Shown: in pieces, positions 30,355-30,463 of the stretch | How the letters are laid out: each line of letters starts with the position of its first letter | How positions within the stretch are numbered: position 1 is the first letter of the stretch | IMG/VR virus record: IMGVR_UViG_3300037423_000584 | Reading direction: 5' to 3' (one strand) | Length of the DNA: 64,000 nucleotides | DNA from: a virus | Notes under the pieces: generated by a model | Seen by the model: the letters and a program-made list of their open reading frames with translations, nothing else | What the model was told of the DNA's origin: nothing | Database searches by the model: none | Position numbers and translations under genes: made by a program

Positions 30355-30463
30355 GTACCCATAGCTTAAAGTGGCCCACCTTTGACTACCTACCTTTTGG
30401 TTGGCTGCGTGGCAAAGCAACTCATAATCTGAGTAGATCTTGGTTCGAACCCAAGTGGGTACA
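30355..30463 (+). ncRNA. tRNA-like RNA with D-loop insertion displaying anti-RBS sequence
   Basis: GTACCCA/TGGGTAC; GCTT/AAGC D stem; ACTCA-TAATC-TGAGT; CTTGG-TTCGAAC-CCAAG; insert contains CTACCTACCTTTT. Confidence 0.75.

Follow-up and report, generated by a model that had tools for sequence, protein, structure and literature searches.

RESULTS

Setting of the tRNA-like RNA in the early gene block

The window, as we call the whole stretch of 64,000 nucleotides that was analyzed, belongs to a complete phage genome of 172,542 bp whose source metagenomes are from soil and rhizosphere. Minus-strand structural genes run to about window position 4,400, and beyond them small ORFs and tRNAs form a long block on the plus strand; the same layout was found in relatives with 62 to 79% capsid identity. 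A pilin-type N-terminal peptide (PF07963) matched in the phage genome with a score below the cut-off, weakly hinting that the host might belong to the Planctomycetota or Verrucomicrobiota. Where the early block begins, window positions 4900 to 5900 and 7100 to 8600 are GC-rich, structured, and poor in ORFs, and similar stretches occur in contig L401 of a closer relative. The sequence GGTAGG lies at 5077 and 5523 in structured non-coding DNA with no ATG behind it.

The RNA studied here (Table 1) lies within the plus-strand block, and the DNA contigs covering its region represent essentially one strain, without usable variation. For the ORF upstream, which is probably co-transcribed with the RNA, family and relative searches returned no protein family and no relative. 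The strong hairpin adjoining the 5' end of the RNA received no plus-strand terminator call. Both of its 6-nt arms are those of helix 45 of 16S rRNA, possibly by coincidence; helix 45 directly precedes the anti-Shine-Dalgarno (anti-SD) sequence.

Table 1. Features of the window, in window coordinates
Feature	Position	Strand	Description
tRNA-like RNA	30355..30463	+	With D-loop insert; direct reading, folding, Rfam tRNA model
D arm	30364..30418	+	4-bp stem (30364-67/30415-18), D loop to GG (30373-74), insert of ~40 nt (30375-30414)
Anti-leader strand	30386..30398	+	CTACCTACCTTTT, exact reverse complement of 5901-5913
GGTTGG	30399..30404	+	Internal imperfect partner, 1 change relative to leader core; predicted, may form beacon-like hairpin with UUUU toehold
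Anticodon arm	30420..30434	+	ACTCA-TAATC-TGAGT; 5 bp and 5-nt loop, non-decoding
T arm	30439..30455	+	Canonical; 5-bp stem, TTCRA loop
Upstream orphan ORF	29807..30298	+	163 aa, Gly/Gln-rich C terminus
GNRA hairpin	30322..30354	+	Strong, adjoins 5' end of the RNA; weak U tract
Downstream ORF	30491..30694	+	67 aa, own purine-rich SD, start 27 nt past end of the RNA
Target leader class	5901..24275	+	17 AAGGTAGG and 2 AAGGTAGA
Target ATGs, first ten	5916, 6278, 8765, 8910, 9511, 10049, 11099, 11239, 11877, 12560	+	
Target ATGs, other nine	12863, 13248, 13511, 14345, 15065, 16778, 17062, 23391, 24275	+	
Cis hairpin	5890..5913	+	Anti-motif paired with first leader motif
Anti-motif repeats	7912..7928	+	ORF-poor structured stretch
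Anti-motif copy	9228..9239	+	Unpaired, with a hairpin on either side, the second of them terminator-like
Anti-motif copy	10449..10456	+	Directly 5' of terminator-like hairpin
Anti-motif copy	15797..15804	+	Directly 5' of hairpin of the 9239 type
Cis leader hairpin	28014..28038	+	ACCTAC-CCT...AGG-ATGGT before ORF 28044; type dominant in closer relative
Array	25050..50237	+	15 tRNA-Glu(CUC)-like RNAs, CTCTCAG loop, long self-paired D-loop inserts

A cloverleaf with an altered anticodon arm and a D-loop insert

An earlier reading of the sequence alone had proposed a cloverleaf with a non-canonical anticodon arm and an insert in the D loop, and this was confirmed by direct reading, by folding, and by the Rfam tRNA model, which aligned to the RNA with 42.5 bits (E value of 7e-8) and placed 44 nt of the D loop in a local insert; the RNA is nevertheless absent from default ARAGORN output and from the whole-window Rfam scan. 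The 7-bp acceptor stem (30355-61/30456-62) is followed by the discriminator A30463, the variable loop has 4 nt, and CCA is not encoded, as in the canonical tRNAs of this phage. The 7-bp acceptor, the D stem, and the T arm with its 5-bp stem agree with the tRNA family (RF00005) and with allo-tRNAs, from which the RNA differs in its 40-nt D-loop insert, where RF00005 has a D loop of 8 to 11 nt, and in the lack of a 7-nt anticodon loop: TAATC has only 5 nt, with CAT lying partly inside the stem, and the RNA therefore cannot decode. Descent from a tRNA(CAU) is probable, since 13 nt of the anticodon arm are identical to the arm of phage tRNA(CAU) genes (L390), suggesting that the 5' strand was lost and paired anew. 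In the apparently unrelated phage IMGVR_UViG_3300033068_001629, a tRNA-like gene near positions 2870 to 2990 shares this architecture, with a D-loop insert of other sequence and a 5-nt anticodon loop.

Two folds were predicted for the insert. In the minimum free energy (MFE) fold, an 18-nt loop is open at an opening cost of 0.3 kcal/mol, and the GG of the D loop is consumed. The CCAC...GTGG stem described in the sequence-only reading appears in the other fold but not in the MFE fold; it leaves GG free for the tRNA elbow, half-hides the motif behind GGTTGG, and raises the opening cost to 3.1 kcal/mol. By these predictions, hybridization would stay favorable in either fold.

The insert is complementary to a class of early leaders

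The loop of the insert had been described as the exact reverse complement of a sequence at 5901, and this held for all 13 nt (30386-30398 against 5901-5913); elsewhere in the 172.5-kb genome, no perfect complement to the RNA is longer. Within the window, the leader motif AAGGTAGG has 23 copies where 1.4 would be expected (17-fold enrichment); 19 of them are on the plus strand, and 17 of these shortly precede an ATG, mostly by 4 to 6 nt. With AAGGTAGA in the leaders of two further ATGs, this bears out the proposed presence of the motif before about 18 early ORFs. The 10-mer AAAGGTAGGT has 10 copies on the plus strand, and its single minus-strand copy is the loop of the RNA; when the insert was shuffled with its dinucleotides preserved, the 10-mer arose in 0.2% of cases, and its expectation over the 1,500 nt of all non-coding RNA loops is about 6e-4 under a Markov background. 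The motif, hereafter the tag, reads as a canonical SD with one inserted U, and the loop differs from the 16S tail by an inserted A. The complementarity between the insert and the early-leader tag is solid.

Targets were ranked over 445 ORF starts by duplex energy combined with the opening energies of both partners; RNAcofold, which does not allow pairing with bases inside a closed loop, was unsuitable and gave near-zero gains. Of the 14 best predicted targets, motif leaders were ranks 1 to 10 and 13. Averaged over its six best duplexes, the loop reached -19.3 kcal/mol with its own leaders, compared to -12.5 ± 1.1 kcal/mol for shuffled loops, none of 60 reaching the value of the genuine loop, and to -9 to -13.4 kcal/mol for the loop with the leaders of 25 related phages. 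Pairing of CAU with AUG, considered as a second contact, was discarded as unspecific, U at position -1 being common in the phage family by inspection.

The loop also out-paired the standard 16S tail on all 19 leaders, on two of them narrowly; the standard tail itself paired moderately with the tag leaders (-5 to -19 kcal/mol). All 150 matches listed from 182 Planctomycetota genomes carry the standard 16S tail, suggesting that the tag is not the SD of that phylum, and a tail reading ACCUACC was found neither among these 150 tails nor among at least 120 GTDB pattern matches.

Copies of the anti-motif, i.e., of the strand complementary to the tag, also occur outside the tRNA-like RNA (Table 1). 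Together with the cis hairpins, they indicate that the complementary pair is a system and not a lone coincidence. Since four of these copies lie on the sense strand, the tRNA-like RNA may be redundant. We also considered them as -35 context, as they overlap TTGACA or TTGAGA, and hold this to be less likely because no good -10 was seen by inspection and hairpins follow instead.

Relatives carry the same strand in cis or a different tRNA-like RNA

Searches of IMG/VR and the JGI metagenomes with exact and gapped patterns gave chance matches only, and no ortholog of the tRNA-like RNA was found there or in the 30-kb early stretch of the closer relative, a phage represented by contigs L401 and L404 (JGI 3300072491; 77% capsid identity). 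The same 30 kb hold no AAGGTAGG leaders. There, the pattern ACCTA(C/T)-NNN-loop-N'N'N'-ATGG(T) is found in 16 early leaders and forms, 0 to 6 nt before the ATG, a hairpin over the SD; the 3-bp stems covary fully (CCT/AGG, CTC/GAG, and TCC/GGA), while ACCUA(C/U) and AUGGU are invariant. Three leader hairpins of this ACCUA(C/U) type were found in soil contig L402, which is homologous to ORF 28044, and in the distant relatives the full stem was present in none of 21 matches to the leader-hairpin pattern. The strand that the window phage shows in trans therefore lies in cis over the SD of its relatives. These hairpins are predicted to be weak (about -3 kcal/mol), and their internal loop is invariant, which suggests a protein partner rather than plain occlusion; the undescribed motif ACCUA(C/U)-NNN...N'N'N'-AUGGU is a candidate for a translational operator or riboregulator. 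In the closer relative, a GGTAGG that precedes a terminator was considered as an opener, but it shares bases with a stop codon and may be there by chance.

In the distant relatives (about 63% capsid identity), early leaders are purine-only, and 39 IMG/VR records (L175 to L217; e.g., L175:9913-9988, minus strand), several of them tied to the group of the window phage by their capsid gene, encode another undescribed tRNA-like RNA. It has an acceptor, a D hairpin (GGTGGG), and a T arm, and a polypyrimidine strand, often containing the terminal 8 nt of the 16S tail, replaces the anticodon arm; 7 of 17 pairs show compensatory changes. RNA 30355-30463 differs from it in architecture, having neither the GGTGGG hairpin nor a single strand in place of the anticodon arm. 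Where the records contain sufficient upstream sequence, the polypyrimidine RNA lies 11 to 20 kb downstream of the first early genes, whose purine-only leaders pair with it. Genome G009 has neither the RNA nor purine-only leaders, and G053 is a counterexample with purine-only leaders and a deviant loop. The match between loop and leaders is of low complexity and not genome-specific, no covariation of the two was seen within the clade, and the RNA ends 1 to 9 nt before the ATG of a conserved ORF of about 160 aa, a position from which it may act in cis. As the match is not genome-specific and the RNA abuts an ATG, we regard it as an analogue with a cis rival of its own.

A sibling array of tRNA-like RNAs with D-loop inserts

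The window contains an array of further RNAs with D-loop inserts, with homologues in L402, L401, and L404. Its alignment has 95% paired cells and 89 two-sided changes, so that the cloverleaf stems covary strongly. Ordinary phage tRNA-Glu genes have the loop TTCTCAG, near-identical to the CTCTCAG of the array, which suggests that the array is derived from tRNA-Glu, and a relaxed IMG/VR search with the array pattern returned ordinary tRNA-Glu genes. The copies end 2 to 10 nt before the ATG of a short ORF without a separate SD, except for the copy at 26441 (33 nt), and the 3' strand of their acceptor (GGGGT) could be a sequestered SD. On the array model, RNA 30355-30463 scored 20.9 bits, compared to 78 to 138 bits for members. 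It lacks the G1-U72 pair, the AAYAGG D loop, the CTCTCAG loop, and the long paired insert, and it is separated by 27 nt from an ATG with an SD of its own. The array appears to be a different, probably cis-acting element. With at least 15 siblings of this kind, D-loop insertion is a general design in this phage; the further suggestion of a general display scaffold did not extend to them, as their inserts are self-paired and antisense display was seen in RNA 30355-30463 only.

Upstream of the array, successive closed RNA helices (24500 to 25045) run into its first copy. More atypical tRNA-like elements with changed D or anticodon arms, all unlike the array, lie at 15951-16061, 19316-19394, 27329-27452, 49182-49313, and 53271-53337, and long-arm tRNAs with a UAU anticodon lie at 32053-32224 and, in relative L402, near position 235.

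DISCUSSION

RNA 30355-30463 is a real, undescribed RNA, of which no description was found in the literature. Its context in the phage family points to a likely regulatory role. Our preferred reading, to which we give a probability of about one half, is that of a stable, host-processed antisense RNA that occludes the early ribosome-binding sites as a class. The tRNA body would be cut from the transcript by host RNase P at the 5' end and by RNase Z or exonucleases at the 3' end and would then protect the RNA. With its gene 6 to 25 kb downstream of the targets, the RNA would accumulate later than they do. The U-rich end of the loop would nucleate on the A run preceding the tag, and the resulting duplex of 9 to 13 bp would cover the SD and end 4 to 6 nt before the AUG, outcompeting the 16S tail and preventing 30S loading on about 19 early mRNAs together. 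Such an RNA would act as an early shut-off timer, possibly also against superinfecting kin, and the bulged SD would serve as a private address, sparing host and late phage mRNAs.

The sign of the regulation cannot be read from complementarity alone, and the sequence-only reading had left the choice between a trans-acting antisense regulator and an initiation adaptor. The former gained from the target ranking, from the duplex energies, and from the relatives, with their cis strand and analogous RNA. An adaptor or activator, the tRNA body of which would dock on the ribosome (e.g., in the E site) while the loop acts as a phage anti-SD favoring mRNAs with a bulged SD, now appears quite unlikely. 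It would account for the likeness of the loop to the 16S tail plus one A, for the SD spacing of the tag and its moderate pairing with the standard tail, and for the pairing strand of the distant clade, which replaces the anticodon arm and hence the mRNA-facing end of a tRNA. But with perfect pairing the SD would be covered up to 4 to 6 nt from the AUG, a position that normally prevents 30S binding, and the four further anti-motif copies have no tRNA body. Moreover, a strand inserted in the D loop would leave at the tRNA elbow, far from the mRNA channel, and a gene downstream of all its targets has the wrong timing to activate the first genes. No precedent for a tRNA-like initiation adaptor was found in the literature. 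Equally hard to credit is the broader form of this idea, in which the RNA would be a natural orthogonal initiation channel, a private anti-SD in trans, with the relatives having moved the strand between cis and trans.

A protein could also be the partner, with the loop acting as a decoy or sponge that shows the family-wide ACCUAC strand and titrates a phage or host RNA-binding protein whose normal sites are the cis leader hairpins, or non-coding GGUAGGU RNAs (5077 and 5523); blocking of the early mRNAs would then not be needed. The closer relative, where invariant ACCUA(C/U) and AUGGU surround a covarying stem, shows a pattern typical of protein operators; one clear hairpin of this type persists in the window phage (28014), the insert is predicted to be able to fold an imperfect hairpin of its own with similar logic, and the structured non-coding DNA of the window includes two copies of GGTAGG. 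We nevertheless hold the decoy to be unlikely, because the genome contains one or two operator hairpins compared to 19 leaders that are perfectly complementary, including the flanking A run, and a protein decoy would not require complementarity to that run. Models for CsrA, bS21, and LSm/Hfq-type proteins had no match in the phage genome, the LSm model being a weak test for Hfq. Less credible is a cis-acting processing element, i.e., a tRNA-shaped cut site defining mRNA ends, with a loop that is incidental or makes a long-range contact within the transcript. The array siblings, which end just before an ATG that has no separate SD, and the similar RNA of the distant clade fit this idea, whereas the ORF downstream of RNA 30355-30463 lies 27 nt away with its own SD, and the 13-nt match (chance of about 1e-3 or less) would be left unexplained. 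That the RNA is a non-functional relic, a decayed tRNA(CAU) which captured an inverted leader piece by recombination, seems very improbable: as expected of a relic, it is a single copy with no ortholog found, and its anticodon arm resembles a damaged CAU arm, but all four stems pair perfectly, the anticodon stem has re-formed, and the motif is present alone, without the leader flanks.

Among known systems, the C4 RNA of P1 and P7 comes close: it is a phage RNA with a tRNA-like body that is processed by RNase P, and an unpaired loop complementary to the phage RBS region occludes the RBS (PMC5320573). C4 has about 77 nt, three stem-loops, and two loops (a' and b') directed at one immunity operon of a temperate phage (PMC5320573), whereas RNA 30355-30463 has a full four-arm cloverleaf, a single insert, and about 19 leaders as putative targets. 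The modeled shape of RNA 30355-30463 is compatible with maturation by RNase P. The Rfam C4 model did not match it at E values up to 10, and a tyrosine integrase (PF00589) had no match in the phage genome. The CI RNA of phage P4 is another close known system of this kind. Class-wide posttranscriptional shut-off of early genes at translation initiation regions is known from T4, which inactivates early mRNAs via their SD through RegB and RegA (PMC3014915); these are proteins, a GGAG-cutting RNase and a repressor acting at A/U-rich sites, while the agent proposed here is an RNA and the tag contains no GGAG. In the engineered tRNA scaffold, the acceptor, D, and T arms likewise shield the RNA that they carry and bring in host processing (Ponchon et al., PMC3753655), with the cargo placed in the anticodon arm; here the scaffold is natural and the cargo sits in the D loop, or at the anticodon position in the distant clade. 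A form of this kind was not found in term searches of two allo-tRNA papers (PMC5389517 and PMC7609411). The PeSLs of T4-type phages, promoter-terminator DNA cassettes driving recombination, also recur at the leaders of small early ORFs, but no complementary trans RNA is described for them (PMC2839356). The tRNA scaffold and the switch of the strand between cis and trans are new.

If the antisense reading is right, a lytic phage marks out all genes of one temporal class by a one-base variant of the SD, and a single tRNA-shaped RNA controls the early class. Even for T4, the shut-off of early genes is understood only in part, and a testable RNA mechanism is offered here. The tRNA would serve as a natural cargo scaffold, and entire arrays of such genes are overlooked or mislabeled by tRNA finders. 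The phage family appears to use three designs, namely, a tRNA mimic in trans in the window phage, hairpins that carry its strand in cis in a closer relative, and a tRNA mimic with a polypyrimidine strand in distant ones. Across the early leaders of all three, in this phage and its relatives, single-stranded GGA or GGAG is avoided; in the window phage, GGA occurs in 2 of 19 motif leaders compared to 70 of 174 other leaders. A possible reason for this avoidance is escape from a factor like CsrA or RegB.
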